NCBI GenBank assembly: GCA_963701965.1
Contig: OY969695.1
Span: 3,008,001-3,072,000 of the forward strand
Source of the DNA: an uncultured Gemmatimonadales bacterium
GTDB taxonomy: Bacteria; Gemmatimonadota; Gemmatimonadetes; Gemmatimonadales; Gemmatimonadaceae
Direction of reading: 5' to 3'
Length of the DNA stretch: 64,000 nt
The translations under genes and the position numbers were made by a program. Each line of letters opens with the position of its first letter. Position 1 is the first letter of the stretch. The notes below the pieces were generated by a model. The model did no database searches and had not been told where the DNA came from. It worked only from the letters and a program-made list of their open reading frames with translations. This document shows positions 40,407-64,000 of this stretch, in pieces.

Positions 40407-40479
40407 TGGGGTGTAGCTTAGCTGGCAAAGCGCCCGGCTGTTAACCGGGAGATCGCTGGTTCAAATCCAGCCGCCCCAG
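40407..40479 (+). tRNA. tRNA-Asn (GTT), CCA not encoded
   Basis: Acceptor TGGGGTG/CGCCCCA, D arm, anticodon stem CCCGG-CTGTTAA-CCGGG, GGTTCAAATCC T-loop. Confidence 0.93.
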
Positions 40480-41065
40480 TTTCTAATCCTAACTGCGCTA
40501 GTGAGTTAGGCTGGCGACGCCGGTTGCCGAACACTTCGTCTTCCAACGGCACCCGCTGCGACTCCAACGGCACCCCGAGCCGGCAAACTTGCGCAATCTC
40601 GCCTCAACCTGCCTGAGCGCCCGGTGCACGACCGGGCGACTTAGATCGTCCGGCACTGGAAATCGGAGGTGGCGATGCGGATCGTCATTGTCGGTGTGGG
40701 TCTGGCTGATCTCATCGATCTCTTCAACAAACGGAGTTTGGGTGTACGCGCCAAGTCCGCCGGAGAGCCGTGCGGTCCAGCTACAACTGTAGTCGCGCGA
40801 GTGCGGAGCCGCGGGCTGAGGAGGGTATCGTAGATGTATGAAAGTCGACACGCGCACCCGAAGTCATAGCAAACCAATACAGTGGGGTCCACGTGTGCTG
40901 TGCGAAGACCGCTGGCGTGTTGAAGCGGTAATCAAGCGTGGGCACGTCGCGCGAATCGAACGCGTCGCGCTGATAGGCGATGCCGACGACATCTCCTGAG
41001 GCCTGTTCTCAAGTAAATGGGTCAGATCCCGAACGACGTGAGTGGCAGTGCAAGAGATTCAGCAA

Positions 41066-42016
41066 CTATGCCGTGCAGCCGCGCTGGTCCATTCCAGGGA
41101 GCCAGGACGACAGGTCCGTGCGCCAGATGTGCATCAGCCCATTGTTCCAGCTGTGCATCTGATCGAGCGCGATCGTCCCGCCGGGCGGTGTCCGGATAAC
41201 CCGATTGCTGCCGAAGAACAGCGTATGGCCATCGGGCGCGAAACGAGGCTCGATCTCCCGAAACGCGCTGTTGATGCCTGGACCCAGAGACAGCGGCTCC
41301 CCCCAAACGCCCTTCTTTCGGAAGACGATAAAGAGATCCAGGTCTTTGTCCGCGGTTGGTGGACGGTTCGACGCAAAGACGGCGTAGGATTCATCCGGCG
41401 CCACCGTCGGATCGACGTTGTTGTAATGCTCGTCGCTGAATGACACTCGCTGGGCCCGCGCGTATTGACCGCTCTTCATCTCCGACCGGAAGATCTGGAA
41501 ACGCCCCGAGTCCCCCGTCGGTTTCATGAAATACACGCTACCGTCCGCGACGATGCTCGGCGTGTACACAGATGAGTTCGCGTTTACCGTCTCCGGCAGC
41601 CGCACTGGCGCACTCCAACCGTTGCCGCGCCGGTCGACTCGCCAGAGGTTTCCGCCGGCGCCCGGGAAGACGCGGCCCCCGTAGTTCCCATCGAGTGGAA
41701 CGCCCCCATCCGTCGCCGGACGGTTGGATGCGAAGATCAGATAGGACCCGTCTGGCGCTAACGCGCCTTCCACATCGCGCCAGTGGCCGGAGAACGCGGC
41801 AATCGATGGTAGAGTCCAGTGGCCGCGCTCGAGGCGCGAGGTCACGATTGCGTCTTCCACGCCATTGCTCATCGTGTACCAGACCGCGCGGCAATCCGGA
41901 GCGAACGTCGGCGCGTAACTGGCCGCCCCGTTCGAGATGATGCCTGGCGCGAAGATCGTCGGCTGTTGTGCGCCGAGCGTAGGCGCCAGGAGTATCGTGA
42001 GCGCAAGCCATCGCAT
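41066..42016 (-). CDS. Secreted PD40/TolB-like beta-propeller protein
   Basis: Signal peptide; repeated P.F/APDG..L.F.SNR motifs. Confidence 0.82.
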   Translation of the reverse strand: MRWLALTILLAPTLGAQQPTIFAPGIISNGAASYAPTFAPDCRAVWYTMSNGVEDAIVTSRLERGHWTLPSIAAFSGHWRDVEGALAPDGSYLIFASNRPATDGGVPLDGNYGGRVFPGAGGNLWRVDRRGNGWSAPVRLPETVNANSSVYTPSIVADGSVYFMKPTGDSGRFQIFRSEMKSGQYARAQRVSFSDEHYNNVDPTVAPDESYAVFASNRPPTADKDLDLFIVFRKKGVWGEPLSLGPGINSAFREIEPRFAPDGHTLFFGSNRVIRTPPGGTIALDQMHSWNNGLMHIWRTDLSSWLPGMDQRGCTA

Positions 42017-42385
42017 GCTACGAAACTAGCACGCGGTTCCGCCGCTGCAAGGATAATGCAGCGAACTGACCATTCCCGCTCGCCAGCGAGTGCCGACCGG
42101 TCGCCGATGGTGACGGATCAGGGCTGTTAGCCGGCATAGAGCGCGACGATTGATCTGAGCGCACATGCGAGCAAGAGTGCCGCCGCGCGTGCTGCATTCG
42201 TTCAGGCCGATGGAGCCGATGCGTTGCCCGTCTCGAAAATCATTGACTTTCTGCCAGAGTCCCAGCACTTCGACTTACGTAGGGCGACACAATCGTCACA
42301 CCTTCATCAATGCCGGCTCGAATATCACCGAGGTGATCCCAGTGATGATGCACCGCGATCCAGGGGACGGCATCTGCCAGGTCAG

Positions 42386-42533
42386 TCACGGCATTTTCCG
42401 TCATGTTGAGAGCGAAGCCACAGCACCGACGCCCGCATTCGCCAACAAGTACGGTCTTTTGCAGGTTTTGGGGTAGACAACAGGAAGACTGTTAGCCGGG
42501 AGATCGCTGGTTCAAATCCAGCCGCCCCAGTTT
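42386..42533 (+). repeat. att junction copy 1: ~100-bp arm plus tRNA-Asn 3'-half duplicate
   Basis: CTGTTAGCCGGGAGATCGCTGGTTCAAATCCAGCCGCCCCAGTTT; arm highly similar to 60453-60555. Confidence 0.92.
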
Positions 42534-42599
42534 GTAATTCCTTCAAGATCTGCGACTTGCAGAGCGAGTGCTCAGGCTTCGAGCACTCGGGGGCGCGTT

Positions 42600-43150
42600 G
42601 GGGACGCGTAATATCCGCCCGCGGCCTGTAGCGATTTTCCCACTGCTCTCCCAACTTCGACGGCTCGTTCATTACGGCGAGTATCGTGTCGGGATCGGGC
42701 TGCTGATAGCACTTCAATAACATTCGCGTTCCTTTCCATCCGCCGGCTGCTGCTACATCAACCAGCGGGAGATGCTTGCGCTCGGTCGCCCACTCTCGAC
42801 GGTACGGGTGCCATGCGCCGAGCGGTAGTGGTCGGAGATCGGCTTTCTCTTCAGCAACGTGCAGCCAGAAGAGAAACATTCTTCGATTCATGAGCCGCAA
42901 CGGACCGCGCTCACCGGTGAATATCGGCCCCGATGTACCGAGCTGCAGCTGAAACGCGGGGATCTCGTCGTAGAGACGACTGGGCAACGGGATGATCCAA
43001 TCGTTGTTTCGCTTATCCGCATCGGCCTTCCAGTAGATGCAGCCTTGCTGGAGATCGATGTCCTCCCACTCAAGCGCCTGAATTGATCCGAGCCGTCGCC
43101 CGGTAGTTTCGGCGAGCAACAGCGCGAACTCGATCTTGATCCACCGATTT
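42600..43150 (-). pseudogene. Tyrosine recombinase/integrase catalytic-domain fragment (5'-truncated)
   Basis: TG.R.GSI..LEWEDID, WH.YRR.WAT, GGW......Y. Confidence 0.82.
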
Positions 43151-43174
43151 TGACCGTGAGATCGTCCGCTTCGC

Positions 43175-44053
43175 GTGCCAGCTGTTGGAGCGCGGCACGC
43201 GTCTCCGCCGGTGGATGCCGCGGCAGCGCACGCCGCGTTGATGGTGCGGATATCCAATCGAGCGCGCACTCCGGTAGTATCGAGCGTTCGACCGGTGCCG
43301 CGATGGCGCGCTGCCCTGGTGATGGGCTTGGGTGGAGCGGCAGTGTTCTTCACCGTCCTGACCTTCGTACCAAGCGTCCGCCGGTTGATCGCATTGGCCG
43401 TGGGCGCGCCGGCGGACATCGAACTTGCTACGGCGATCGGCGAGACGCGGTCTATCCGACTACCAGATGGATCGCGAGCTACGCTCGAGCCAGACAGCCG
43501 GCTCTCGTACCACGCGTCGCTCTTCGAAAGGGAGCACGTGGTGACGCTCCGGGGCGCGGCCACCTTCGATGTGGTACCTCAGGGGTTCGGCATATTCCGG
43601 GTTGCTGCCGGTCAGGTATTCGTCCAGGTCCAGGGGACACGGTTCACCGTCCGGTCGTATCCGGGCGACTCGAGCGCCAGCGCTTTCGTTTCGCGAGGGC
43701 GCGTGTTGGTGTCAGGCGTGGACCGTAGATCCGTGACCGTCAACACGGGGGAGCTGGCGCGCATCGTGGGTCGGACGGCGATAGTGGGATCTGGCAGTGC
43801 GGACGATCGGGTCTCCTGGGACGGAAGGACGCTGCGGTTTGATCGTGTGCCGCTGTCCGAGGCGATCGAGGCACTAAGGCACTGGTACGGCCTCCCGATT
43901 CGCCTGGGTGACGCGCATCTCGCGGCGCGGGTTGTTAGCTCCTCAATCCCTGTTACTCAGGATGACGGTATAGCTGCTCTCTGCGCAGCGGTAGGTGTTA
44001 GAGCCCAGCGATCATTGGGCGCCGTCGTTCTGTACGATGTCGCACCTGACTGA
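43175..44053 (+). CDS. FecR-family protein, probably 5'-truncated
   Basis: TM then T..GE.RSI.LPDGS...L, L.G.A.FDV, V.GTRF.V, L.FD.VPL.E. Confidence 0.75.
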   Translation: MPAVGARHASPPVDAAAAHAALMVRISNRARTPVVSSVRPVPRWRAALVMGLGGAAVFFTVLTFVPSVRRLIALAVGAPADIELATAIGETRSIRLPDGSRATLEPDSRLSYHASLFEREHVVTLRGAATFDVVPQGFGIFRVAAGQVFVQVQGTRFTVRSYPGDSSASAFVSRGRVLVSGVDRRSVTVNTGELARIVGRTAIVGSGSADDRVSWDGRTLRFDRVPLSEAIEALRHWYGLPIRLGDAHLAARVVSSSIPVTQDDGIAALCAAVGVRAQRSLGAVVLYDVAPD

Positions 44054-44225
44054 ACCCGAGATGCGACCGCAGCGATTTTATCATTGTTACGATCGCGCCG
44101 AATCGTTTAGCCGAAGATGTTGATGAGAATGGATGAGCGGATTTTTGCGTGGAGGGAGACGCACGCACGAAGGGGCCGCGAGTGAAAAGCCTCGGCCGCG
44201 TCGTGATTTGACATGGATTGCGCAG

Positions 44226-44243
44226 TTTTACAGATCTGTAAAA
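44226..44243. promoter_or_regulatory. Perfect 18-bp palindrome, candidate operator
   Basis: TTTTACAGATCTGTAAAA, 12 bp downstream of TTGACA (44208-44213). Confidence 0.45.
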
Positions 44244-44469
44244 TCGCGATATTTGCCGATCTGGTCTTCGGATGCCGGACCGCCCCCTAGCATGGTCCAG
44301 GCGCCGTAGCGTCGTCTTGCCGATTGCGGCAACGTGCTAACCAGGAAGTCAGGTACCGTTTGATTTACTGCATTTTACGGCAAAACACTGACATTTTTTA
44401 CGGAGATCGACTAGCGCTTGATGGACGATGAGCTGCAGCAGGATCCTTCGCCGCTACGGCCGAGGGCTG

Positions 44470-45000
44470 ATGACAGCGCCTCGAGGCATGGGAGTATCAC
44501 TGTCGAGACACGATCGACTGAGCGTAGCGCCAAAGCGCATCGGCGCCGCGGCCGCGACGCCGTAGGTAGTCTCGGAGCGCCTCGATTGCGACGTCAGCGC
44601 CCACCTTGTTGCGGAGCTTGAAGCAGTCGACGACCGTCTTCGCGGCGTCGAAGACTCGCACGGATGCGCCGTCGATTTGGTGTACCTTGACGCAAGCCGC
44701 GAGAGCCGCTCCGGAGAGGTCAACGATCCGAAGGGGAGTTCAGGTTCACGCGGGGTACGCGCGTTATGGGCGATGGTGACCCAAAACTCGCCTGGGTTCC
44801 GGCGGCGGGACCACGAAATCGCAGGGCAGTAAGCAGGCGGATAACGCCGTGCGGGACACGGATCGCCGTCTCGGCGAGCATCCGCTTTTCGGCGAAACCT
44901 CGTCGAGCGTCATGTAGATCCCGCGTGCGGTTCGTTCGAGGCGGCCGGCGGCGCACAGCCGCCGTAGTAGCATTGGGTCGAGACGGACGGTTTGAGATCC
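44470..45000 (-). pseudogene. Type IV TA antitoxin AbiEi remnant
   Basis: LER.ARGIY, RVP.GV..L.TAL.F, and AKTVVDCFK.RNKVG.DVA.EAL in shifted frames; no AbiEii partner. Confidence 0.75.
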
Positions 45001-45169
45001 CGCGGTCTGAGGATTCTACGGGGTTTGATCAGCGCCAGTAAGTGATCAGGTCCAGACCTGGCAGGGTCGTCTTGAAACGTGGGCATTTGTCAATATATGC
45101 CGAGGTTTAGAAACATCCCCTCCGACCAAGATCGGGACGGCAAGTAACAATGATGCGCGGATCGGTCAC

Positions 45170-46000
45170 GCTGCGACGCTAGCAGGACCCCCGAATTGCG
45201 TTCCAGCAGGTTGGCGAGTCGGTCGAGATACGTGTTGAGGCTCAGGTTGTGAGCTTTGGCGAGCAGTCTAAGGTCGCGACCGACGTTGGTGCGCCACCTT
45301 CGATTCGTCGAGCTGCCGTTCAGACAAGCCGCCGAGGCCGGACTGCCGGATCCATTTTTCTGGGGCAAAACTGTAATAGCCTTTCCGTATTCGTGGTTGT
45401 GAGTCGCCTTCGCGACCCTGGCCTTCTCCCGATACTCAGGATCGATTGCGTTGCGGATCGTGTCGAGGTCAATGTGGGTGTCTGTCGAGGGCCAGTGGAA
45501 AAAACTCCCGTCCTTGTTACCTTAAACTCCTGGCGTTCCGCGTGTGGGATCGCGGCGAGAGCCGGAACGTCATTGAAGGCGATCTCGTAGGTAGTCGCAG
45601 CGCACTGAGATGACGAACAGCTATCGCCCGCAATCGTTGCTTTTGCGATCAGCTGATGCTGAGCGCCACGAGTCCATGCGCGCATGACACTGCGCGGGAC
45701 ATCTCCGCCGCGACGGGCAGCGCGTTTCGCAGTGTGTGTAGATTCGCGCGTTCGAGCATCTGCGGCAGCCACGACGGATCGGCATTCTGGCGCACCAACA
45801 AGGCGCGCAGCTGATGCCGCCGATCGGCCGCATGGAGAGGTCTGGAAAAGCCGTAGCTGGGTGGCTGAGCAAAGAACGAACAGATTCTGCACGTGGTCGC
45901 TGAGATCTCTTGGGGCGGCGAGCACCTTGATTCCTGGACTCGAGGCGATCGCGTGGCTGTCCGTGTCGCACTGAACGACATTGAATTCAATCTCTGCGCC
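45170..46000 (-). pseudogene. DUF2442-like plus XRE-HTH antitoxin remnant
   Basis: Frameshifted HWP..D.HIDLD.IR.AIDPE...YGKAI...LAKAH.LSLN.YLD. Confidence 0.55.
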
Positions 46001-46007
46001 GTCGTCC

Positions 46008-46260
46008 TTAGCGGGGAGATAGTTTCGCCTCCCATTCCTCAAATAGCTCTGCTCGATGAGCGAGCACTTCGTCCAATATCGCATCCGGTCTGATCGAGAT
46101 GGATCGGAACCCCACTCCATCTCGTAGCTTAGGTCTTCAGCTCCACTCAAAAGAAAGAACACCCGAATCTCCCACTCGCCGCGGATTTTCGCGTGAAAGT
46201 GAGGGGGCTGGTGATCGACGAGTTGAACCATAGCTGCAAGCCTGCTAAGGAAAACGCATT
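46008..46260 (-). pseudogene. DUF4160-like toxin remnant
   Basis: DH.PPHFH motif and HRAELFEEWE end in a shifted frame. Confidence 0.6.
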
Positions 46261-46943
46261 GGGTCGACCCATGGCTCCTCAACCACTCGTGCACGTGAAA
46301 TAATAGTAATACCAAGTGGACATTTAAGCAATCGCCAGCGAACTACATGTGTCCGCTCACTTGACTGTTGCCGCTGGGAACGGTTTACCGCGGATATGCG
46401 GCCGGCGGTCGCATATCCCAATTGATGGCAATCCAAGGCAGGTCGACGCTGTGTCGAAGTCCTGCGGGGAACCATCGGCTTGGGTGCAAACCATGATTGG
46501 CGACGGGTACGTCTACGGTGAATTGTGAACCTACCCGCCTGCCCGACACCGGGACTCATTACCCAACACTCGACGGCACGCCTGCGGCATGGAAATCAGC
46601 CGCGGGATTACATGTCGCGCACGCCCCGCCAGCGTTCTTAAAGACGCGGATCTCGTCGGGACCGGGTTCCGGGACGGGGAGTTCCGCAGTCACCTCGAAC
46701 TGAGGGAAGATCTATCATCATCAGGATCAGGAATGCAGTGCTGGAGTGCCTTTTCGCAGCACAGGGAAGACGAGCGTGACTCTGGATTTTCGAGCACGGG
46801 CCACGAACTCACTGGTCACGCATGGCCAGAAGCGGGCGAGGGCAATGGGCGGGCCCGGTGCCCGGCCGAGCGGGATCCGTGACGGTGCGGATCATGGCGC
46901 GGTCCCGAGAGTACAGGATGCTGGGGATGACCTGACCGTCGGG

Positions 46944-47378: not shown

Positions 47379-48779
47379 GAGACCTCCGGATGACGGTCCG
47401 CAGGAGCACGCGAGATAGGATGGGCGTGCCCCTCGGCGTTGATTGCGGTCAGTCCGCGAACCGGGAAAGGGGGAGCGGGGTGGCTCGCTTTGCGAGCGGG
47501 GAAGATAGGCACAATCATTATAAAAAGTGACGACTAAATAGCTTGTGCATCATTGCGACGTCGTGTTGGTGTCGCCCGCAGAGCCGAGCCAATCCCACCC
47601 GGCACCCCCACGACAAAGGGCGAGTTTCGCATGGACGGTGGGGTGGACACCGCAAGCGGGCGTGCCGAGATGATGCACCGGCGGGCAACAGGAAATGGAG
47701 CGCCCAGCGCAGTCCGATGCAGTACACCGGCGAGCCGGTGAGCGGACGATTAGTCAGGAGGGCGGGGGCGATGACTGGACAGTATACCGATTCTTTGGTC
47801 CTTTGTCATGGATATGTGATGGGACTTCATGGGGCTGTGGAATGCGCTTGCCTGTTCGTCTTTCGTCGGAACTGATCCTCCATCGTGAACGTACCGTGAC
47901 CCTGAATGGCGGGTATATTGAGGCCTACGAGCTCGACCTTCATTGGAACCGCTTCACCTGGGGGTCGATGTCCTCGATAACGGCGGGATGTCGACTTACG
48001 ATGTCGAGTGTGAGAAGGTCGGCCACGTTGCCGTCGACAGCGAGAGTCGCGGCGAGAAGGGGGACGAGAACTACCTAACTGTGGATCGATGAGGCGCGAT
48101 AAGTTTCTATTTCTGAGTAGGGGCCATTACGATCAGAATGTGGAACATGACGCACATTCGGGGGCGGCGTGCGTCATTGTTGTTGCTGGATTCCGGTGGG
48201 ATAGAGAGAGGGTATCCGGTTACCCCTCCAGGACCAGGGGCGTGGTGTGGCTACACCGCGCAGGAATCGAGTAGACTGTTTGGCGCGCCGGTCCGGCTCA
48301 ACCCTGGATGACCATCGAACGGGGTTTGGACTGACATGGCGCCGCCGGCTGTCGACATGTCGTGGTCGCAGTTCCTCTGGGTTTCGTGGCCATCTAGCTG
48401 ATTTTCGGAGCATTCTGTGTCACGGTGTTTCTTGCCTGGCACTTCAAGTACGATGCGAGCCTCGGCCCACCCCGATTCGTGGCGACCCGTATGCGAGCGC
48501 TCGGGCTCCACCTCGGCGGACTTGGAGCGGGTTACGTCGTGATTGGGCTGATCTGGACAAGCGCCACCGATGGTCCATCCCGCGCGCGCGCTCGCCGTGT
48601 TAGCCTCCTGTTCGCTGCACATTGGCCGATCTATGCACCGCAGAAGGACTCCTCTGGCTCTTCCTCCTGTGAAAGACGCCGAATTCCACGCGCTGCTCTG
48701 CACTCCGCGTACGTGTGGCGGTGCGTCCGCGGCAGCAATCGGCGCCACCTTTGGAGTCGGCCAAGCCCACACAAACGCG

Positions 48780-49180
48780 AACTATCGGGCTCTCATGGGT
48801 CTGCGCGGTGGGGTGACGCGGCGACGCTGGTTGGGGCGACAGGTCTGCTTATTGGACGGGATCGTCGATCGAAGGTCATGCGGGACCCGGGCGATGGCCA
48901 CTTGCTGACGGTGGCGCCGGCGCGCTCGGGCAAGGGAATCAGTGTCGCGATCCCGAACCTGCTGTTATACGATGGTCCGTTGGCTCTGCGACCCCAAAGG
49001 CGAGAACTACGCTGTCACCGGAGCGCGCCGGCTGGCAGTGGTGTGGCCGGTGCATGCCTTCGATCCATTCAACGTCGCTGGAGGGCGAGCGGCATACAAT
49101 CCGCTTGACTTGATTGACGTGGAGCGCGACAGCGCCAATGACGATGCGTGGAGGCTCGCCGACACGCCGGTGGTGGGGAG
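48780..49180 (+). pseudogene. VirD4/TraG type IV coupling protein fragment
   Basis: HGSARW, HLLTVAP.RSGKG...IPNLL, DPKGE, FDPF, YNPLD across frames. Confidence 0.8.
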
Positions 49181-51118: not shown

Positions 51119-51593
51119 CTATGCGGCGCGATATGGTGAGCCGGCGTGCCCGGCCCGCCACGTCTCCTCGTCGAACGGCTCCGCGGTCTGCATAATGTGG
51201 AGGAGCATGGGCACGAGCTTGCGCGCGATCGCGCACACGGCGCTCACCTTCGAGCCGCCGTTCCGACGGCAGAGCGCGAGATAGCTATCCCGTGAGAGCC
51301 CCCGAGCCTGGCACCACCGCCCGGCGAGCAAGAGGAGCTGGCGCCGGAGCGCTGGCCGGCCACGCTTGGTCTGCTTGATCCGTCCCCGCACCGACGTCCC
51401 GTCTTCCTTCCCAGCGAGGTTCATGCCCGCGAGCTTGAGGACCTGGCGTGGCGAGACGTAGCTCGCCGGCGTTCCCAACTCGGCGACCAGCGTTGCCGCA
51501 CACACCACACTCACGCCAGGCACTGTCGTCAGCGCCGCCACGGCCGGCATTCCGCCCGCTAACGCCGCCAGTTGTCCCTCGACGGCCGCCGTG
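51119..51593 (-). pseudogene. IS110-family transposase C-terminal fragment
   Basis: L.TVPGV....AATLVAE.G, LAG.N, .KRGR..LR, A..AIARKL; cut off at the IS3 end. Confidence 0.85.
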
Positions 51594-51692
51594 TGCGGGC
51601 CTGGGTCCCGCGGATTCTGAGTCCGGCGGCGGTCCCGTTTTGACAGCGTAGGGATTCGAGGCCAGACTCCCCTAACGGGGAGGAGGCCAGGA

Positions 51693-51959
51693 ATGCGGGG
51701 GAGTAAGTTCACCCCGGAGCAGATTCTGCAGGCGCTGCGGCAGGCAGAAGCCGGGACCGTCGTGGACGAGATCTGCCGGAAGCTGGGCGTGACCGAGACG
51801 ACGTTCTATCGTTGGAAGAAGCAGTACGCGGGGCTGGACGTGAGCGAGCTCCGGGAGCTGAAGCAGCTGCGCGAAGAGAACCGGCGATTGAAGCAGGTGG
51901 TCGCCGATCTCACGCTGGACAAGACGATCCTCCGGGACGCCCTGGGGTGGAAACGGTGA
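51693..51959 (+). CDS. IS3 transposase OrfA
   Basis: F..EQI...L, ICRKLGV.E.TFYRWKK.Y.G, EEN.RLK. Confidence 0.92.
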   Translation: MRGSKFTPEQILQALRQAEAGTVVDEICRKLGVTETTFYRWKKQYAGLDVSELRELKQLREENRRLKQVVADLTLDKTILRDALGWKR

Positions 51960-52498
51960 GCCCAGCCCACAGGCGCGAGGCGGTCGGCTGGGCGCAGTCG
52001 GCCTACCAGGTCAGCGAACGGCGGGCGTGTCACGCGTTGGTCGTCCATTGCGCACTGGTGCGCTACACGTCGGTGAAGCCGGATGACGCGCCCGTGCGCC
52101 GGCGGCTGCACGAGCTGGCGCTGGCGCGGCCGAGCTTTGGAGTGAAGCGATTGCACGTCATGCTGCGCCGCGACGGGCTGCCGATCAATCACAAGAAGAC
52201 GCGCCGTCTGTACCTCGAGGAACGGCTCCAGCTCAAGCCGCGGCGCCGCCGACGCCGTGCGGCCACGGTGCGCCAGCCCCGGGCTGTCGTCACGCGGGCG
52301 AACGAACGCTGGGCGATGGACTTCATGCACGACGTCTTGGCGACCGGCCGTACGGTCCGGGTGTTCACGCTCGTGGACGTGTGCACCTCGGTGGACAGTC
52401 AAATCCGGCCACTGATCGACGGTTGAAAAACCGGCCACCAGCCGGGGGGACGTCCGAGGCGTTGACGCCGAGGCGGCGGGCATTGTCCCTCCGCCGGC

Positions 52499-54047
52499 AT
52501 GAGCAACGTCTTGAAGGCCGACATCCAACAGCAGATCGTGGCGTTGGGGCGACTGGGGTGGTCGCTCCGGCGGATCGAATAGGGCGACCGGCGTGCGCCG
52601 GGAAGACGGCGAGCGCGTATCTCAAGGCGGCGGGCATTCCGGTGCGGGGGCGCGGCGGCCGGCCGCGCGCGTGGCCGCCGGCAAATCCGGCCACCACACC
52701 GGTGGTGTCCACCGACTCGACGGCGCCGACCGCGTCGCGGCGGGCGAGTGCGTGCGAGCCGTACCGCGAGCAGATCGTGGCCGGGGTGGCGCAGGGCCGC
52801 AACGCCATGGCGATCTGGCAAGACCTGGTCGACACGCACGGCTTCGCGGCCCGCTACGCGAGTGTCCGCCGGTTCATCCGGACGCTCCACGATCCGGCGG
52901 CCGTCGAGGCGCGCGTGGTGATCACGACCGCCCCGGGCGACGAGGCGCAGGTCGATTACGGCGAGGGGCCGATGGTGCGCGACCCCGCCACGGGGAAGTA
53001 CCGGCGCGTCCGGCTCTTCGTCCTGACGCTCGGCTACTCGCGGCAAGCTCGGTCCGGCTCCTCGTCTGGCGATCGAGCACCCAGATCTGGGCCGAGCTGC
53101 ATGAGCGCGCCTTCCGCCGGCTGGGCGGCACGGTGCGCGTCATCGTGCTTGACAACCTGCGCGAAGGCGTCCTCACGCCCGACGTCTACGACCCGACGCT
53201 CAATCCACTCTATCGCGACGTCTTGGCCCACTACCACGTCGTGGCCTTGCCGTGTCGCGTGCGGGATCCGGATCGCAAGGGCAAAGTCGAATCGGGGGTT
53301 GGCCACACGCAGCGGACGCCGCTCAAGGGCCTCCGCTTCGAGTCACTGGAGGCCGCGCAGACGTATCTCGATCAGTGGGAGACGCGCTGGGCCGATACGC
53401 GCATCCACGGCACGACCAAGCGGCAGGTCGCGGCGATGTTCGCCGAGGAACAGCCCACGCTCGGGCTGTCCGCCTCGAAACCCTTCCGCTACTACCGCTA
53501 CGGCACCCGCACGGTGCATCTCGACTGGGTGCGTCGAAGTGGAGGCGGCCTACTACAGCGCCCCACCCGGCTGGATCAGCCAGCGCGTGCAGGTCCAGTG
53601 GAACGATCTCTGGGTGCGCCTCCTCGCCCCCGACACGGGGCAACTCCTCCGGGAGCATCGGCGGACGGCCCGCGGCCGGCATCGGGGTGCACGACACCGA
53701 CCGCCCCGCTCGGACGCCGCTGACGACGCGTCGCCCTGCTCGCGCGGACCCAGCGCGCCGGCCCGCACATCGGCACGCTCTGCGACACGATCCACCGCCA
53801 GGACGGCGTGCTCGCCGTCCGTCGCATCCTCGGCGTCCTCGCCCTCGCCAAGCGCTACGGCCCGGCCGTCGTTGACGCGGCCGCGCACGCCGCCCTCGAG
53901 CTGGGCGTGCCCACCTATCGCTTCCTCCGCCGCTACCTCGAGCACCGCGTCCCCGTCCCCCTCACGCTCCGCCAAGTCGATCCCCTCATCCGGCAACTCA
54001 CCCTCTACCGCGACCTCATCGATCGCACGCTCGGAGATCCCCCATGA
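52499..54047 (+). pseudogene. istA: IS21 transposase IstA (stop plus several frameshifts)
   Basis: PG.EAQVD.G, L.YSR, DN...GV, KGKVE. Confidence 0.85.
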
Positions 54048-54812
54048 ACCTCGTTGAACTCGATCACGCGCTCCGCCAACTCCGCCTCTCTGGCATGGCT
54101 GCGGTTCTCGAGACCCGGCTGCACCAAGCCCAGACCGAACGCCTCGCGCCCATCGACCTGCTCTCGGCCCTGGTCAGCGACGAACTCCTCCGCCGCCAGG
54201 ATCGCCTCCTCGAGCGCCGGCACAAGCACGCCCGCTTCCGCGATCCCGACCGCTCGCTCGACACCTTCGACTTCGACTTCAACAAGAAGATGAACCGCGC
54301 CCTCGTCTACGACCTCGCCACCGCCCGCTTCGTCGCCCAGCGGGAGGACGCCCTGTTCGTCGGGCCGCCCGGCAGCGGGCAAGAGCCATCTCGCGCAAGC
54401 GATCGGCCGCGCCGTCATCCATCAAGGCTACCGCGTGCTCTATCGCGAGGCCCACACGCTGCTCGAAGAACTGGCCGACGCCACGCTCGACGGCACGCGC
54501 AAAGCGTACCTCGCCGACCTCGCCACCGTGCCGCTCCTCATCATCGACGATCTCGGCATGCGCAAGCTCCCCCACACGGCGGCTGAGGATCTCCTGGAAC
54601 TCATCATGCGCCGCTACGAACGGGCGTCCACACTGCTCACCTCCAATCGCCCGGTCGAGGACTGGGGCAAGCTGCTCGGTGACACCGCGGCGGTCACCGC
54701 GCTCCTCGATCGGCTCCTCCATCACGCCCACATCCTCAAGTGCGGCCCCCGCAGCTGGCGCACCAAGGTCCAGGGTGACAGCTTGTCCACCGACGCGACC
54801 GGGCTGCGCTAG
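54044..54812 (+). CDS. istB: IS21 helper ATPase IstB, frameshift near 54382
   Basis: GPPGSGK, LLIIDDLG, TSN, LDRL.HH. Confidence 0.88.
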
Positions 54813-55462
54813 CCCACTCACCAGTCTCGGACGCCTCACCGTGGTGGCCGGTTATCAGCTGTCCATCAGTGGCCGGTTATGAAGTGTCCACCGAGGGTGC
54901 ACGCGCGAGTGCGTCGCGCTGGCCGTCGCCGGACGGTTCCGCGGGACCGATGTCGCGCGGCTGCTGACCGAGGCGGGGGAGCGACGCGGCACCCTGCCCC
55001 CGGTCATCCAGTGCGACAACGGGACCGAGTTCACGTCGACCGCGCTCGATCACTGGGCGTACTGGAACCGCGTGCAACTCGACTTCAGTCGGCCGGGCAA
55101 GCCGGTGGACAACAGCGTCTGCGAGGCGTTCAACGGGAGCCTGCGGCGTGAGTGTCTCACGCGTCATTGGTTCGCATCCCTCGCGGAAGCCCGGATCGAG
55201 CTGGAAGCCTGGCTTGAGGACTACAACAACCACCGACCCCATACCAGTTTGGGGTTGAATCCCCCAGCGCGATATTGGAGCGCTGGCAGTCACCACCCTC
55301 GAACCCCGCGCTGACAAACTGACGCGCTAGCTCGGACTCACTTGGGGGACCCAGGCCGCACTCTTCGCCTGGTATGTCTCCAGGGTTACTGGCCTGTCTC
55401 GCAGTGCCCATAATGTTGGATGCATAGCAGTTTAATGTCTTTGTAATACCACCTATAGGACA

Positions 55463-55891: not shown

Positions 55892-56247
55892 CTCGCCAGA
55901 CTCCAAGCGAGATTCGAGCGGCAGAAAGTCGCGCGACGTCGCCCGCGCTTCGCAGTAAATCGTGTCCGTTGCTGGAAGCGGTGACGTGTTTGTAATGCTC
56001 GATAGCCGGGGGCGGGAGAGCTGCCTGACGTCCCTTGTTTGCACCCTACTTTGAGTGCCAGTCAAGAATCACGGGACTACGCGTTCGCGATTAGATCCAG
56101 CCGACTAGATACGGATCCCAATCTCATTGAGGGTCCGCGTGCGTAGTCCGTCTTGAGCTGGTACCATCGACCGAGTTACGCAACGCTCCACAGATCGAGT
56201 ACTCAACCGCCGACGTCAATGCGGGAGGCATCGAAGAGCCCGAACTG

Positions 56248-56691: not shown

Positions 56692-56795
56692 GGTTGCTGA
56701 AGCGTCGACGACGACATCGACGTGATAGCGTGCCGTACTGGAAAGGGGTGGTGTCACTCGCGGGGCGTGTGGAACTGCTTCACCGTCCGTGCTGC

Positions 56796-57650
56796 CTACC
56801 GGGTAAGCCCCTGGTGTAGCAGGTCCGATTTCGCGAGCATCGCCAGTTGGTCGCCGTCGTGGCTCACGATAACCGCCACGCCTGCCTTGTCGGCGGCGTG
56901 CAGCCACCTGAGCTCCCCGGCAATCGCGCCGCGATCCTCGCGGATGGAATCGGGCTTCTGGGTTTCCGTCTCAATGCCGAAGTGGTGCCAGGCCACATCG
57001 CCCGCTAGGATGACCTCTTTTTCCGATGCGAGCGTCACATAGATGACTTGGGATCCTGGCGTGTGACCGGGCGCCTTGATCAGCACGACGCTGGGCGCAA
57101 TCGGCAGCACGCCCTCGTAGTCGACGACGATATAGCGGTTCACCTTCGCCGAGTCGAGCTTTGAGATGAGCTTGGGCGTCCGGACCAGTGATTCGACCTG
57201 CTGGCGCGTGAGCATCGTGTGCGCCGCCATCTCGTCGGCCACGGCCGACTGCACGACCGTGGCGACGTGGTCGTAGTGCTCGTGCGTGACGACGATCAGG
57301 TTCGCCCCACGTAGGGTCGCCAACATGCTCGTGTAAGCCGAATCAATGAACACGCCCGGGTCTCAGGCGCGTCGCGCCGTCGCGCGATCCATCCCGGCAT
57401 CGACCATGATCCAGCCATGCGGAAAGCGCACCTGGAATACCGGGACCGGGTTAGAGACTTTGGTTTTGGCGGCGTTCTCGACCAAGTCCGACCGCGGAAA
57501 TGCGGCGGTCTCCAGAACGAGGTAGTTGATCGCGGTCGGCAAATCGCCTGGAATCGCATGCGCGACCGCGCGTGCGGCCGCGAGCTGGGCCCCGAGTGGC
57601 TCTGCCAGCGCCAGGACGAGCACGCAGAGCAGGCGCTTCGCAGGCCGGCG
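56796..57650 (-). CDS. MBL-fold metallo-hydrolase, frameshift near 57360
   Basis: VDAGM, THEHYDH, APGHTPGS, LAGD, SHD. Confidence 0.75.
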
Positions 57651-57814
57651 GTGAGTACGCCGTTCTTCGCGAGCATCTTCAGTTGCAGGGATCATCTATC
57701 CTCTTGAGGATTGCGATGCGTGGGGTGTGTTCGTCGGCGAGACCGTTATTCGTTCCCGTTGATCCGGCGGCACGCGCGCATCCGAATCACGGCTTTCTCT
57801 GGTGGCGCCCGTCC

Positions 57815-60309
57815 TTAGTCGACCCGTAACACCTCGGCGGGCGCGACGCGCAATGCCTGGCGCGCCGGCATCCAACTCGCCCCGACCACCGCCGCGACCA
57901 GCAACACAATGATCCCGGCGTAGGTGGCCGGGTCAGACGGGGCAACGTCGTAGAGCAGCGAGCGCAGAACACGCGTCGCCGCGAGTGCTCCCGCAATGCC
58001 CACAATGCCGCCGGCGGCCGCGATGACGACGCCCCGGCCGACCACGAGTTGACCGACCAAGGCGGGGGTCGCGCCAAGCGCGACGCGCACGCCAATCTCA
58101 CGCGTGCGCTGCACGACGGTGAACGCGAGTACGCCGTACACGCCGAGCATCGCGAGCACGAGCGCAACGGTGGCGAACGAGGTGAGCAGTGATGTTCCGA
58201 ACCGGGCTAGTGCCATCGAGTCGCCGACGCGTCGAGCGAGCGGAAGGGCACCGTAGACCGGTGCGTTCGGTGCGACGCCATGGACCACCCGCCGCAGGGA
58301 CGCGACCAGCGCGAGTGGGTCGCCAGCCGTGCGAACCAGCATCGTCACCCGTACGTCCGGCATCTGAAGGTATGAGAAGTAAATGTCGATGCCAGGCACC
58401 GAGTCGGGCGCAGTGTATCGGACGTCGCCGACGACACCGACGACGCGCGCGGTATCGGTGGCAAAGCTGCCGATACCAAGGTTCACGGGTTTCCCGATCG
58501 GGTCTTCGTCTGGCCACAGGCGCCTCGCCGCAGTCTCACCTACGAGCACGACCTTCGGCGCGTTCGCCCGGTCCGCATCAGTGAACGCGCGGTCCCGGAC
58601 GACCGGCACGCGCATCATCAATGGCCAGTTGGCGCTGATCACGTGATCGGTTACGATCCGCCTCTCGGCATCTCGGAGCGGCGGTCGGTCGAGAAGGTGG
58701 ATGGGTGTTCTGCCCAGCCGCCGCTCAGTGGCAGACGGTCCTGGAGTGCGACACCCGCAACCCCAGGGAGGCTGCCAACGGCAGCGAGCACCCGGTCGTA
58801 GTAGCCGGGAAGGAGATCCTCGTTTTTCCCGTCGTGTGCGCCCGGGTACACGGCGTCTTGGAGTGCATCCGGCCGGCCCAACCCCACGGTCAGCACGCCG
58901 CTGGCGTCGAAGTTAAGCGGTACGGCGAGGATGTTGCTCAGACTCCGGATGAGGAGTCCCGAGCCAACGAGCAGCACAATGGCGAGCGCCACTTGCGCCG
59001 ACGCGAGCAGCGCCCGTCCGCGTGCATCGCGTCGCTCCCGAACACCGGGGCGCGGCGTTGAGCGCGTGGCATAGAGCGCGGGGAGCAGCCCAAACAGGAG
59101 GCGCGTGCCTAAGGTGATCGCGGCGGCGAACGCGAGCGCCGTTCCGTCGAACCGGATCTGATCGAAAGACACGAGCTCGAGCGATCGAAGCAAGATCGGT
59201 TTCGCGGTTCGCGTAGGGTCGAGTGCGACGAGGAGCCCTGTGCTCCACCAGGCGAGCGCCGTCCCGGCCGCACCGCCGGTCACGGCGAGCAGCGCACTCT
59301 CCGTGAACAGCTGACCGACCAGACGCCGACGCGGCGCGCCGAGTGCGACACGGATCGCGATCTCTCGTGGCGCCCGGCGGCACGTACCAGCAGCAAATTC
59401 GCGACGTGGCACACGCGATGAGTAAAACGATGCCAACCGCGCCGAAGAGAGCGAGCAGCGCGCGTCGCACCACGGGGTCCACGCGTCTCGCGTCCAGCTC
59501 GCGCGCGACCGCGCCCCAGTGAACGCTCCTCGGTCTCTCCATCGGGAAAGCTTCGTCCACACGCCAGCCCAGTTGGCGTACCTGTTCCTTCGCGAGCTCC
59601 GGCGAGACACTGGGCTTGCGTCGCGCGATCAGTGTGAGGAAGTGCCGGAATGGTTCGCTTGGCGCCTCTGGCCTGGCTCCCATGATCGGCGCCCAGAGTT
59701 GGGCATGCCCAGTCAGTCCGTGAAAGCCCGGAGGCATGACACCGACGATCGTGTACGGCTCGCCACTCAGATTGATCGTGTGGCCGACGACAGCGGAATC
59801 GGCGTCGAAGCGCTGGCGCCAGAGGGCGTCACTGAGCAGCGCGACTTTCGGGCCGTTCGGGACACGCGTCTCATCGGCCGTGAAGTTGCGGCCGAGCGCC
59901 GGACGATGCCAAATGTCGGCAGATAGTGACTGTCCGTCATCTCGGCCTCGAGCGGCCGCGCGGCGTCGCCGCCGAGTAGGACGACCTGCCAATCCGAATA
60001 GAGCGCGACGTCCGAGAAGACGGTCTGCGCATCGCGAAACACGGCGAACTTCGGCAGCGACCAGGCCATGTCATCCATCGCCGGCATCTGATGCACCGGC
60101 GGTATGGTCAGGCTCACGACCGTGAGCCGGTCGGGATCACGGAACGGGAGTCGGCGAAGCAACATCGTGTTGACGGCGCCGAAGATGGCGACGTTCGCGC
60201 CGATGCCAATGGCGAGTGTCAGCACGGCAACGACCGTGAACCCCCGGCGCTTCCGCAGTGCTCGTATCGCAATGCGTAGGTCCTGCACAATGGCGTCGAC
60301 GGTCGACAT
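57815..60309 (-). pseudogene. ADOP-type ABC permease with multiple frameshifts
   Basis: QDLR.A.R.L.K..GF...AVLTLAIGIGAN; REIG.RVALGA; split across four or more ORFs. Confidence 0.85.
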
Positions 60310-60452
60310 CGAAGCTCCTAACTGGCGCAGCTGCGTTGGCGCATAAGATGTGAGACTCGGGTGCGATCCCGATTGCTCACGATAGTGGCATCGCACCTCC
60401 AAATCCAGCAATCCATGATCGCGAAATTCCGGCGGGCGTTCACGAGCGCGAT

Positions 60453-60600
60453 TCACGGCATTTTCCGTCATGTCGAGAGCGAGACTACGGCACCGACGCC
60501 CGTATTCGCCACCAAGTACGGTCTTTTGCAGGTTTTCAGGTAGACAACAGGAAGACTGTTAACCGGGAGATCGCTGGTTCAAATCCAGCCGCCCCAGTTT
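60453..60600 (+). repeat. att junction copy 2: ~100-bp arm plus tRNA-Asn 3'-half duplicate
   Basis: 60556-60600 identical to 40438-40482. Confidence 0.93.
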
Positions 60601-60790
60601 GTAATTCTAACTCCATCAGCGAGTTAGGAGGGCGCAGCTGCCGCGCGAGCACTTGCTCCGTTGTCACATGACAACGGCACCCATTGCGATACCAACGGCA
60701 CCCCGAGCGACTACACTCAGGAACCGCCGCCTCAACATGTCTGATCTCCCGGTTTCCGACCGGGCGATCACTCTGCGCCAACGTTCGCGA

Positions 60791-61336
60791 TCAAGTGGAC
60801 GGCGTTCGAGTCGATGAGTTGCGCGATGACGCCTCTCCGTCCGCATCAAAGCCAATGCGGCGCGAAGGCTCGTCCGGTGGTGATGCCACGAGCTCGCGAA
60901 TCGCATCGAACACAACGGCGAACTGCTGATCGTATCGTGCTCCGAGGTCGTCGAGTCGGCGCGCGAGTTCGACCTGCGTCAGGAGCATCGAGCGAAGTCG
61001 ACCGAACGCTCGCATGATCGCAATGTTCACCTGTACGGCGCGCTCGCTGGTCAGCACGCTCGAAAGCATGGCGACGCCATACTCTGTGAACGCCAGGGGT
61101 GGCTTTCTCACACCCATGCGCTCGCGATTGGATATCACAATCTGTGATTTCCAATCCTCGACCTCGTCCGCCGTGAGCTGGAACATGAAATCGGGCGGAA
61201 AGCGATCAATGTGGCGTCGGACGGCCTGATTTAGAGCTCGTGTCTCGACCTCATATAACACCGCGAGATCTCGATCCAGCATCACCTTCCTGCCGCGGAG
61301 CAAAAAGATCCGTTGCTCGATTGCTGCAGCTGACAC
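60791..61336 (-). CDS. ORF6N domain DNA-binding protein
   Basis: I..LRG.KVMLD.DLA.LY.VET..LNQAV.R...RFP.DFMFQL, AFTE.GVAMLSSVL.S.RA..VNI.IMRAF. Confidence 0.92.
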   Translation of the reverse strand: MSAAAIEQRIFLLRGRKVMLDRDLAVLYEVETRALNQAVRRHIDRFPPDFMFQLTADEVEDWKSQIVISNRERMGVRKPPLAFTEYGVAMLSSVLTSERAVQVNIAIMRAFGRLRSMLLTQVELARRLDDLGARYDQQFAVVFDAIRELVASPPDEPSRRIGFDADGEASSRNSSTRTPST

Positions 61337-61885
61337 GACGATTTGAGATTAGGCTTCTAGCACGGTGTGACATAGGTTGAATGCGTCGCAATGTTTTGTG
61401 CGTGACGGACGACCGTGTTATCGGTCATTCGCCGCGAGCCATCAATGCAGCACAAGCTACTGGACGGCTTTGTGAGTTGAAACGTCAATAATTGAACGTG
61501 GATCAGGACAACTTGTGTGTATCGTCGCCGAGCGCGGGCGCGGCGCGAGGTGCGCCACCTGCGTTGCAGATTATCAATGTACGCGCTCAACGCCCGCGAT
61601 ACCTGGCGGCGCCGCGGCTGGCAGACGTAGGTGTGATGCCCGGTCCGGCGATGGCGAAGCGCCGATTCAGCGCGGCGTAGTTAAGGCCGTGGACCAAAAC
61701 CCATAGCTGGGCTAGCTCGTCGCGTCGGATGCGCCATCGCGCAAGGAACTCTGGTCGCGTCATGAGGTACGTGACGGCACTAGAGGGAGCTCGATCTAGT
61801 GCGCCGACTGGAAGGACCAGGTTGCCTACGCTAAGATCGGGGTGCTGCGAAGCCAGAAGGACTACCAGAAGCGAGGTGACAGCAT

Positions 61886-64000
61886 ATGGACCGACTAGTG
61901 CGGGATGTGCGGGTCGCCTTACGCGGGTTGCGCCGTCAGGCAACGTTCACCGTGACGGCGGTGCTCGTGCTGGGCCTGGGCATTGGCATGGCCACCGCGA
62001 TGTGGGTGGTGTTCAACGCCGCACTCCTACACCGCCTGCCTGTCGGGGATCAGGACCGGATTGTCCTGCCGCGCACGCTGGATCGCGCGGGAACGGACGT
62101 GGCGATGCCCGATCGCGAGCTGGACGAAGCTCGCCGCGAGAGTCGCACGATGCGTGACATGGCCGGCGTCGGAGACTGGGGCGCGTACGATTTCCCCTTT
62201 CTCAACGGCGATCAACCGATCCATCTCGGCCAGGCCGACGTCACCAGCAACTTCTTCAATGTGCTCGGCGTGCGCCCTGTGCTCGGCCGGCTACTGGGTT
62301 CGCAGGACGACAGCGCGTCACGCGTGCTGGTGCTGAGCTACGGAGCCTGGCGGCGCCGGTTCGGTGGCGATCCGTCCATCATCGGCCACCACCTGACGCA
62401 ACCAGGCACGGGATGGACGTTCACGATCGTTGGTGTGGCGCCTCCTGGGCTCGACTTTCCAGCTGGCACAGATTGCTGGACTCCCTTGGAGGCGACCTTC
62501 TATTCGGTCGACATCGTCGCACGGCTGGCGCCCGGCGCTTCGCCCGCGGCGGCGCGTGCCGAGTTCCTGGCGGCCATGGAGCGCATCAGCGCACGTCGCT
62601 CTTCGAGCCTCAACCTTGCCCGAGCCGACATCCGGACATTGCGCACGGCGATCGCCGGAAATGCGCGACCCGCGCTCGTCGTCCTCGCGTCTGCCGCTGG
62701 CCTCCTGTTGCTCATCGCATGCGTGAACGCCGGCAATCTGCTGTTGCTCCGCGCCATGAGACGCACGCGAGAATTGGCCGTGCGGCGCGCGCTGGGCGCA
62801 ACCTACGTGGATGTCATGCGCGAGCTGCTCATCGAGAACATACTCTTGGGCCTGGGCGGCGCCGTTTTCGGGCTCGTCATCGCCGAGATTGCGCGGCGCG
62901 CCTTGATCGCGGCAGCGCCGCCGCAACTTCCGGGACTCGACGTCGTACAGGTGGGCGGGTTGCCTCTGGGGACGGCCGCCAGCGTCACACTCTTGACCGT
63001 GCTCCTGTTCGGGATCGCGCCGGCACTGACGGCCGTGCACCGGAATGCCGTCTCGGCCCTTCGCCTTGACGCCCGGGCAGGCGTCTCGACGCGGCACCAA
63101 CGGCGCACACGTCAACTGCTCGTCGCTTCGCAGGTCGCCCTCGCGCTCATCATGTTGGCGGGCGCGGGGCTCCTCACTAGAAGCCTGCGGCAACTCGAGG
63201 CGGTGCGCTTGGGATACGCGCCCGAGCATCTCGCGTTCGCGGAGCTGACGATCCCCGACAGCCATTGGGACACGGTCTCGCACGGCTTCCCCGTGTACGA
63301 GGCGCTGGCGGCGCGTCTGACTGCGATTCCAGGTGTGAAGTCTGCGACGCCGCTCCTCGGACCACCATTCAGTGACCTCAATGTGTCCGCGGTGTGGGAG
63401 ATCGAAGGACAGTCTCCGGTCCTAGCGGCAGCCAATCCAATGGTCCCGATCGAAATTGGCAACGCGGATTACTTCAGAACATTGGGCATAGCGGTGCTCC
63501 GCGGGCGGGGCTTTCTTGCAACAGACCAGGGCAACGCGCCCCACGTCGCCGTCGTCAGCGAAGCCGCCGCCCGCCTCTTCTGGCCCGGTCAGGATCCGAT
63601 CGGCAAACGGCTGCGGCTCGCACATAGCAAGCAGCCTTGGTGCACGGTCGTCGGTATCGCCGCCGATATCCGCTACCGTTCGCTCTCGGAGGCTGCGCCG
63701 ACCGTATTTCTTTCGTGGCGCCAATCCTACTACTGGCAGGGCCTCGTCGCGTTGCGCACCGCAACGAACGTCGTCGGGTTGGCGCCGGCCATCCGGCGCG
63801 TTGTCGCCGATGTTTATCCAGACGTGACCGTCTGGCGCGTCCAGAGCATGGACGACTACCTCGCACAGCCATTAGCCCGACCGCGCTTGAGCGCGACACT
63901 GCTGTCGGCCTTCGGACTCACCGCTCTGCTTTTGGCAGCGGTAGGACTCTACGGCGTGATGGCGTCCCTGGTCCGCAGCAAACCCGCGATATAGGTGTGC
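61886..64000 (+). CDS. ADOP-type ABC permease, close paralog of 26820-29198; frameshift near 63977, runs off the window
   Basis: Same motif order; the shifted frame gives QQTRDIGV. Confidence 0.88.

Follow-up and report, generated by a model that had tools for sequence, protein, structure and literature searches.

Stacks of mobile elements behind a single chromosomal target have been described before, and the locus reported here has its closest relatives among them. The three-step model of accretion and CIMEs (cis-mobilizable elements) is set out in PMC5704250; going by the available text of that account, our locus is like ICESt1/ICESt3-type accretion with CIMEs in forming a mostly decayed stack at one target, and like CIMEs in that units without integrase and transfer genes keep both att ends, with a helper integrative mobilizable element (IME) in tandem. 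The Dehalococcoides ssrA island arrays, in the accessible part of PMC3146451, likewise have numerous islands in tandem no more than 100 kb from one RNA gene, around half of them without an integration module, and have a conserved motif upstream of each repeat, but they involve a serine recombinase and tmRNA, whereas the present locus involves a lambda-like tyrosine integrase and the anticodon loop of a tRNA (the serine resolvase family PF00239 had no match in the arrays of the window genome, G000, or of G001, G003, and G005). Prochlorococcus tycheposons, as far as the accessible text of bioRxiv 10.1101/2020.12.28.424599 goes, resemble it in having cargo at tRNAs, partial tRNAs between neighbors, and integrase fragments deeper inside. 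Tycheposons bring their own integrase and often a replication module; the units here that begin with the left arm we call arm A have neither among the scanned ORFs, and the helper is an IME that carries a relaxase. The array ORFs scanned contained no primase or helicase domain. A search of the Gemmatimonadota literature on genomic islands, integrases, and tRNA gave, by title or the start of the abstract, nothing on such an array. Since accretion arrays and CIMEs are already known, the array by itself is ordinary; what goes beyond the textbook case is a second attB-like site in arm A and the transfer signal of one permease unit.

The window is a 64,000-nucleotide stretch of an uncultured Gemmatimonadales bacterium (contig OY969695.1). 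Its stack of units was probably built by repeated site-specific integration through a lambda-like tyrosine integrase, with decayed IMEs alternating with integrase-free arm-A units that would have used a borrowed integrase. The target and its att cores are as follows.

40407–40479, plus strand: tRNA-Asn(GTT), the integration target
40428–40454, plus strand: attB-type simple site, two 10-bp half-sites flanking the 7-bp anticodon loop (40438–40444)
40438–40482, plus strand: att core 1, the 3' part of the tRNA, 45 nt
42489–42533, plus strand: att core 2, one mismatch (at 42495) to core 1
60556–60600, plus strand: att core 3, identical to the tRNA

The original prediction, that the 3' half of the tRNA recurs twice downstream and that tyrosine-integrase-family att junctions are stacked on this single tRNA, is borne out by these cores; several units are without integrase, and in same-genus species differing units occupy the tRNA-Asn site. 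Sequence common to the tRNA and every junction copy begins only at the anticodon loop, and the 7 bp of that loop (40438–40444) would be the crossover region. Another, differing tRNA-Asn is present elsewhere in the genome. A look downstream for further att copies had been suggested, and the array runs beyond the window to at least G000:C1:3119911, with 7 full cores over about 71 kb (G000:C1 3048438 to 3119911) plus broken junctions. The left arms follow one another in the order A, I, A, I, A, I, ..., I, arm I being a second arm type. Past the end of the window, the left end of unit 2 recurs in unit 4 (91–92%) and that of unit 3 in unit 5 (82%). In G005, of the same genus, 10 cores lie at the same tRNA. 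All cores in the two genomes have one orientation, downstream of the target, and the units between them span 1.5 kb to about 20 kb, with genes on both strands. A core stands at each end, with no integrase match, in units 1, 3, and 5 of the window genome and units 2–9 of G005. The locus thus has the co-oriented att copies, the integrase-free units with both att ends, and, at the same site in G005 and G001, the autonomous element with a cognate integrase that mark an accretion array with CIMEs. Junctions with lost cores and orphan B arms also occur. The assembled contigs gave no sign of excision, circles, or transfer, and B-core-A junctions occur in the chromosome anyway.

That the repeats reflect misassembly or an ordinary local duplication is scarcely credible. 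The arm copies are diverged, and separately assembled same-genus genomes have the same junction types with other cargo. Some indel error in the assembly of this region is nevertheless likely: aligned with each of four other copies, the window's IS21 copy shows 11 gap positions, and those four show none among themselves.

The arms, and the palindromes that close arm A, lie at these positions.

40483–40641, plus strand: left arm A of unit 1, with an IHF-like stretch, two reversed arm-type repeats (~40545–40554 and ~40566–40576), and a terminal palindrome
40615–40641, no strand: attB-like palindrome of unit 1, 17 of 20 half-site bases matching, the 7-bp spacer differing
42386–42488, plus strand: right arm B of unit 1, clade B1 (the profile match reaches ~42366)
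42534–43204, minus strand: left arm I of unit 2 with the C-terminal half of the cognate tyrosine integrase
60453–60555, plus strand: right arm B of unit 2, clade B1
60601–60769, plus strand: left arm A of unit 3
60743–60769, no strand: attB-like palindrome of unit 3, 19 of 20, the top match in the genome after the tRNA itself

Arm A had been called homologous between units 1 and 3, and a global alignment of the two copies (40483–40641 and 60601–60769) gives 67% identity, where 100 shuffles average 0.47 and reach at most 0.55; the high similarity claimed for arm B likewise stands, at 94 of 103 nt. Of the predicted layout, tRNA-A-cargo1-B-att-cargo2-B-att-A-cargo3, the cores and the A and B arms were placed correctly, but a distinct left arm and an integrase 3' half after core 2 had been missed. 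The idea of one family sharing only its att arms is not supported, the arms being of several types: on the left the window genome has two or more and G005 further ones, and the tree divides the right arms into a B1 clade (support 100/99) and a remainder.

The lambda and HK022 att sites, as given in the available text of PMC4880445 and PMC7736782, resemble the predicted sites here in a 7-bp overlap between inverted half-sites and in candidate arm repeats and IHF-like sites. An IHF-like motif stands after the core in 11 of 23 units, where shuffled sequence gives 0.9; right arms are not enriched (2 of 18 against 0.95). Repeats matching between left and right arms by 12–14 nt were found in five of eight elements, not in G005 unit 1, and such paired repeats are not specific among Pro-GGG and Ala elements. 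The arm-type and IHF roles of these motifs are best regarded as putative.

The genes recognized in the window's units are as follows.

41066–42016, minus strand: PD40/TolB-like beta-propeller protein, 316 aa, the sole recognized cargo gene of unit 1
43175–44053, plus strand: FecR-domain gene, at the place of the missing integrase 5' half
48425–49108, plus strand: VirD4/TraG coupling-protein fragment, a relic of the mobilization module of unit 2
51584–55358, plus strand: IS3-like element split by an IS21-like element (52386–54896), family names from Pfam domains
57815–60310, minus strand: MacB/FtsX (ADOP-like) permease in several reading frames, distal cargo of unit 2
60791–61336, minus strand: ORF6N-domain gene
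61886–63994, plus strand: ADOP duplicated permease, cargo of unit 3, a unit that ends 700 nt past the window

The cargos had been described as unrelated, which is not wholly so: units 2 and 3 each carry a permease with MacB/FtsX domains, the unit-3 protein scoring as ADOP. Near-identical copies of the IS3-like and IS21-like elements are found elsewhere in the genome. Unit 2 is a decayed IME, since only the C-terminal half of its lambda-like tyrosine integrase and a fragment of VirD4 are left. The integrase remnant is 69% identical to residues 238–426 of the intact G005 protein, its N-terminal half missing; the FecR/integrase junction is found again in unit 4, and the region of the VirD4/TraG fragment has homologous DNA in the intact G005 element.

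In the Myxococcus phage Mx8, the integrase gene runs through attP and integration swaps its C-terminus. A similar arrangement here, with arm B kept as coding sequence, would accommodate an ORF at 42382–43563 that reads across core 2 and ends in arm B. We regard it as very improbable: the sister copies in the window genome and the intact G005 and G001 genes stop before the core, which refutes an integrase split by attP, and in the window copy a single additional base lies close to the natural end.

An intact cognate integrase had been proposed as something to look for. None was found in the window genome, and the array there may hence be frozen, but the first unit of G005 and that of G001 each encode an intact 430-aa protein. 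In G005, unit 1 also has a MOBP-type relaxase, VirD4, and RadC; having integrase, relaxase, and coupling protein (domains PF00589, PF03432, and PF02534) and no full mating pore, with no other T4SS domain among the ORFs scanned, it is an IME. The next eight closed units, of 1.5–10.6 kb, have no integrase match. The suggestion that units are serviced in trans agrees with the units lacking integrase and with the absence of an intact copy from the window genome; it is weakened by the helper integrase sitting inside the same array in G005 and G001, so that mobilization in cis is as likely. No oriT common to the intact IME and the small units was found.

The predicted structure of the G005 integrase (pLDDT 82.8) has full-length lambda Int as its best match (E 2e-9) and begins with a beta-sheet plus helix; R257, H353, R356, and Y387 are invariant in 23 relatives. 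The model thus has the plan of a lambda-type enzyme, with core-binding and catalytic domains behind an N-terminal domain that would bind the arms. The lambda and HK022 integrases have such an extra N-terminal domain as well (available text of PMC4880445 and PMC7736782). Neither intact integrase gave an NCBIfam family hit at E 0.01.

Integrons are arrays of small gene units near one integrase, mostly single, co-oriented, promoterless cassettes. G005 is like them in having small gene units near one integrase, and the original prediction had likened the locus to a cassette array. The likeness goes no further: the units here are bordered by tRNA cores with long arms, run from about 1.5 to 20 kb, and are often multigene with genes facing both ways. 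The integrase is lambda-like and not of the IntI type; an integron integrase structure ranks 26th in the structure comparison, below lambda, Xer, and Tn1549 integrases.

Arm A is the less conventional component. Unlike the ICESt1/ICESt3 type, as far as the accessible part of PMC5704250 describes it, an integrase-free left arm recurs here 11 times in four species and is not the left end of the autonomous element known at this site; its arm repeats are reversed, it includes a second attB-like site, and the arrays reach 10 cores. None of the 11 copies lies beside an intact integrase, and by profile search no arm-A unit holds an intact integrase gene. The arm-A repeats are oriented opposite to those of arm I, so arm A is not a standard attL. 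One copy, in G003, is interrupted by about 1.5 kb. The arm-I units show decay from an IME, in a truncated integrase and a VirD4 fragment; for arm A, 150 family genomes yielded no autonomous parent element, and one unit, unit 7 of the window genome, contains an integrase fragment (profile positions 274–308). Beyond the genus, the same 150 genomes gave two weak hits only (E ~1e-4, at loci without a tRNA); a strict arm-A pattern was found in 0 of 400 phylum genomes, a sample without same-genus genomes, and in no viral contig. A metagenome scan returned two loci, which repeat G001 and G005 sequence and are therefore not independent. Two other origins for the distal part of arm A were not supported. 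For a decayed tRNA 5' half, the D-arm ranked third of 62 tRNAs, a score reached by 27 of 2,000 shuffles and driven by one copy; as a protein end, it offered no frame both open and clearly synonymous-biased that survives indels.

At its end, arm A has a 27-bp palindrome in which the attB half-sites of the tRNA itself are repeated, with a different 7-bp spacer between them. When the tRNA by itself supplies the half-sites, a score of 18 or more is reached in 5.12 Mb by just two sites, the tRNA (20/20) and 60743 (19/20); ten non-tRNA sites in the genome score 17 or more, three of them arm-A sites. Nine arm-A palindromes set against 62 tRNAs average 17.0/20 for this tRNA, with 14.3 for the next best and a median of 10. 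Among nine copies, identity is 0.84 within the palindrome and 0.30 across the following 27 nt. Most likely, the palindrome would give the integrase a further core-type site to bind, as part of a working arm A, which would explain its retention while the DNA beyond it changes. Against this, one base is lost in 2 of 10 aligned palindromes. No such second site within an arm is described for lambda or HK022 in the available text of PMC4880445 and PMC7736782, and a literature search whose coverage took in few subscription journals gave no report of a second attB-like site within an att arm. Among the matches listed for 33 regions scanned in other genomes, beside related integrases at Pro, Gln, Arg, Ala, and Asn tRNAs, no attB mimic lay near the att site.

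Alternatively, arm-A units could be passive relics, the left end of an extinct autonomous element, with the palindrome a terminator or operator (for ORF6N, for example) and movement confined to passengers in larger blocks or to homologous recombination between islands. We consider this unlikely, though several observations suit it. Three of the 11 arm-A copies have an ORF6N gene next to them and a fourth has a weak remnant of one, and in unit 3 the gene ends 22 nt from the palindrome; the integrase fragment in unit 7 points to fusion of decayed neighbors, and lost-core junctions and orphan B arms are also in keeping with it. Against it, the palindrome fits the half-sites of this tRNA far above those of other tRNAs, keeps a 7-bp spacer, and is maintained in at least six unrelated downstream contexts; it shows no covariation (0 pairs changed on both sides) and no terminator-like call. 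No conserved RNA structure was convincing.

A bolder proposal makes arm A a 190-bp two-ended adaptor of a persistent, gene-free parasite family, which would dock at tRNA-Asn with a borrowed integrase and use the palindrome, with its different spacer, as a second live crossover site capturing host or island genes. Conservation does stop at the right edge of the palindrome, whose offset from the core, wherever the core is intact, is fixed at 175–187 nt, and the arm-A units of 1.9–2.9 kb carry one to three unrelated genes apiece. Moreover, the HK022 integrase accepts an arbitrary 7-bp overlap if the partners share it, according to the available text of PMC7736782. We nonetheless hold the proposal to be improbable. 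No unit has, at its far end, a partner site carrying that spacer; identity among copies is 0.75–0.78 for the right half-site and spacer, which have odd bases in common and look inherited and not drawn from different donors; and selection against deletions would yield the same boundary profile.

On the reading we prefer, a lambda-like integrase would repeatedly insert att-bounded units behind tRNA-Asn, and arm-A units would move by borrowing the integrase of a neighboring or incoming element. The array would grow by accretion, together with deletions that fuse neighbors and mix left and right arms, and transfer between species would proceed via the relaxase and coupling protein of an intact element, for the most part in composite blocks. 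These arrays provide a test set for asking if units without integrase are dead remnants or form a class of mini-elements that is maintained: it comprises the intact helper integrases, natural variants of arm A (11) and of arm B (19), and a single unit showing a signal of horizontal transfer. Were the second attB-like site a live crossover site, units would have a mechanism for picking up single genes, and if arm A were truly a two-ended adaptor, the locus would be a system for gene capture and cassette exchange that is anchored at a tRNA and run by a lambda-type, not an integron, integrase.

The transfer signal comes from an arm-A permease unit of the window genome, which is 91% identical to its counterpart in G001 and 81% to G005 unit 8. 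Since host genes upstream of the tRNA are only 69% identical between these species, the unit has likely moved horizontally. Island genes far from any arm are 83–90% identical between the same species, so horizontal transfer need not use arm A, as would be expected of passive relics. The MacB/FtsX permease of unit 2 also has an 87%-identical copy, at G000:C1:3138311-3140959.

The locus is a real, large accretion array. The repeats behind the original prediction of elements stacked on tRNA-Asn(GTT) hold up: the 45-nt core, which begins at the anticodon loop, recurs at 42489 (1 mismatch) and 60556 (0 mismatches) in the window, the right (B) arms preceding these copies match at 94 of 103 nt, and the A-type left arms share 67% identity where shuffles reach at most 55%. 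The suggestion that more att copies might lie downstream was also borne out, since the array exceeds the window, with further full cores to 3119867 in the source genome (G000), a single 5.12-Mb contig of which the window covers C1:3008001-3072000.

Features of the tRNA-Asn array, and one stray junction elsewhere; positions on contig C1 of G000 unless stated
40407-40479 of the window: tRNA-Asn(GTT), from ARAGORN and Rfam
3048438: full core, in the tRNA
3050489: full core
3068556: full core
3072656: full core
3082517: full core
3084639: full core
3119867: full core
3090432: core remnant of 12 nt, ahead of an arm A
near 3095730: coreless fusion of a B arm to an A arm
3110579 and 3111823: orphan B arms
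4293821-4294318 (locus L005; 4293849): stray B-core-I junction carrying a remnant of an integrase, located within the tRNA-Pro(GGG) island

Two types of left arm, A and I, alternate in G000; type I borders the 3′ end of a gene for a tyrosine integrase. GC content is 0.66-0.71 upstream of the tRNA and mostly 0.58-0.65 downstream, the exceptions being insertion sequences and permeases. A 60-bp unit upstream (36097-36403 of the window; 5.1 tandem copies, 97% matches), with a TonB-dependent receptor gene apparently on one side and a baeRF10 gene on the other, has no Rfam match. Around the last core (L003:9973-16044, equal to G000:C1:3117970-3124047) is a group of four Fic-domain genes, other units carry toxin-antitoxin domains (HipA, Xre/RES-type, AbiEi/AbiEii, and PIN), and genes beside the stray junction are 83-90% identical to array-linked genes of the same-genus genomes G001, G003, and G005. 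Integrative elements are common in G000, since many other tRNAs (Thr, Lys, Ser, Met, Gly, Ile, Pro, Arg, Gln, Ala, and Leu) have additional 3′ copies; small tandems also occur at tRNA-Pro(GGG), -Arg(ACG), -Gly, and -Gln.

An intact cognate integrase, for which the original prediction proposed a search downstream, was not found anywhere in G000. The tyrosine integrase gene of the window (42586-43152) corresponds to residues 238-426 of an intact relative, at 69% identity, and a FecR gene stands in place of its 5′ half, a junction that recurs at 91-92% identity in unit 4, counting outward from the tRNA. Unit 2 also contains VirD4 and RHS fragments and nested insertion sequences (51584-55358, an IS21-like inside an IS3-like element; elsewhere G000 has two uninterrupted IS3 and four IS21 copies). 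The IS21 copy in the window has 11 gap positions absent from the four others, and thus frameshifts in the cargo should not be over-read. A long ORF (42382-43563) runs through the core solely on account of a single extra base; the sister copies end before the core.

The junction was matched in 4 of 5 same-genus genomes. At the same tRNA-Asn, 10 cores are present in G005, whose 20.3-kb unit 1 is an integrative mobilizable element by its gene content: an intact integrase of 430 aa, a MobP-type relaxase, VirD4, and RadC; none of the next 8 closed units (1.5-10.6 kb) has an integrase match. The first unit of G001 also carries an intact integrase. The best match to the predicted fold of the G005 enzyme is full-length lambda Int (for att anatomy in lambda and HK022, see PMC4880445 and PMC7736782). 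Of 301 family genomes, 38 contain relatives of this enzyme at E 1e-40, located beside tRNA-Pro, -Gln, -Arg, -Ala, and -Asn; among the regions listed, each has at most 1 extra att copy, and the tRNA-Asn of this genus was the only place where long arrays were seen.

The array is not an integron. It works like the accretion of cis-mobilizable elements (CIMEs), for which a three-step model is set out in PMC5704250, and the sequence-level features of that process are present here. Of 31 Dehalococcoides ssrA islands, 15 are without an integration module (PMC3146451), and in a tycheposon preprint partial tRNAs separate neighbors. Islander (PMC4383910) counts tandems only if every member has an integrase, and gives three or more members in 4.

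The arm-A lineage, which carries a second, attB-like site (a 10-7-10 palindrome at the arm terminus), is what is new relative to CIME accretion. When G000 was scored with half-sites from tRNA-Asn alone (20 half-site bases), only the tRNA and window position 60743 reached at least 18 of 20; at least 17 was reached by 11 sites, including the tRNA (1) and arm A (3). Over 9 of the 11 arm-A copies (the two that lack a base were excluded), the palindromes score 17.0 on average for this tRNA, 14.3 for the next-best, and 10 for the median of 62 tRNAs. Identity among the 9 is 0.84 inside the palindrome and 0.30 over the following 27 nt (0.84 and 0.32 for the 6 with unrelated downstream DNA). The palindrome shows no covariation, and therefore a sequence-specific DNA site fits better than an RNA stem. 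Its spacer is unlike the anticodon loop; a search of the opposite ends of the units for a partner site found none. The simplest reading is that the integrase would bind the palindrome as an additional core-type site.

Of 23 units, 11 have an IHF-like motif directly downstream of the core (0.9 in shuffles), with no enrichment ahead of it (2 of 18 versus 0.95). Standard elements have paired direct repeats at both ends, with 12-14 nt in common in 5 of 8 cases, read as putative arm-type sites; those of arm A are in reversed orientation, 21-22 nt apart. Right arms comprise a B1 clade (support 100/99) and a mixed remainder. Each of these groups is paired with left arms of type A as well as type I, so an exchange of ends has taken place. 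Additional types of left arm are present in G005, one of them recurring in two integrase-free units (C3 cores 68095 and 39993) and lacking an attB-like palindrome. A 13-bp motif about 55-70 nt ahead of the crossover, which may be a binding site for an excision factor, is kept in right arms of elements with different tRNA targets (tRNA-Asn, -Pro, and -Ala in G000; also G003, G007, and G181), unlike the arm repeats. In attP-like junctions, the stretch immediately to the left of the loop (the last 9 nt of the B arms) looks more like a directly repeated right half-site (5-9 of 9) than like the left half-site of the tRNA (2-5 of 10).

For host genes upstream of the tRNA, identity between G000 and either G001 or G005 is 69%, whereas the unit 3 permease is 91% identical to that of G001 over 2,593 nt and 81% to that of G005 over 2,433 nt, and its unit (A-permease-B1, 2.85 kb in G005) has rank 8 there and rank 3 in G000. 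This points to horizontal transfer of the permease, but the excess identity is equally present in other genes of the island, and thus permease identity does not separate single-unit from block transfer. A clean cassette family is disfavored by the integrase fragment inside unit 7 of G000, the split arm A of G003, and an arm-A unit of more than 15 kb in G001; that the arm-A array captures genes we consider improbable. In another strain, one contig of sequencing run X2 (depth 4.5) has arm A immediately after the tRNA.
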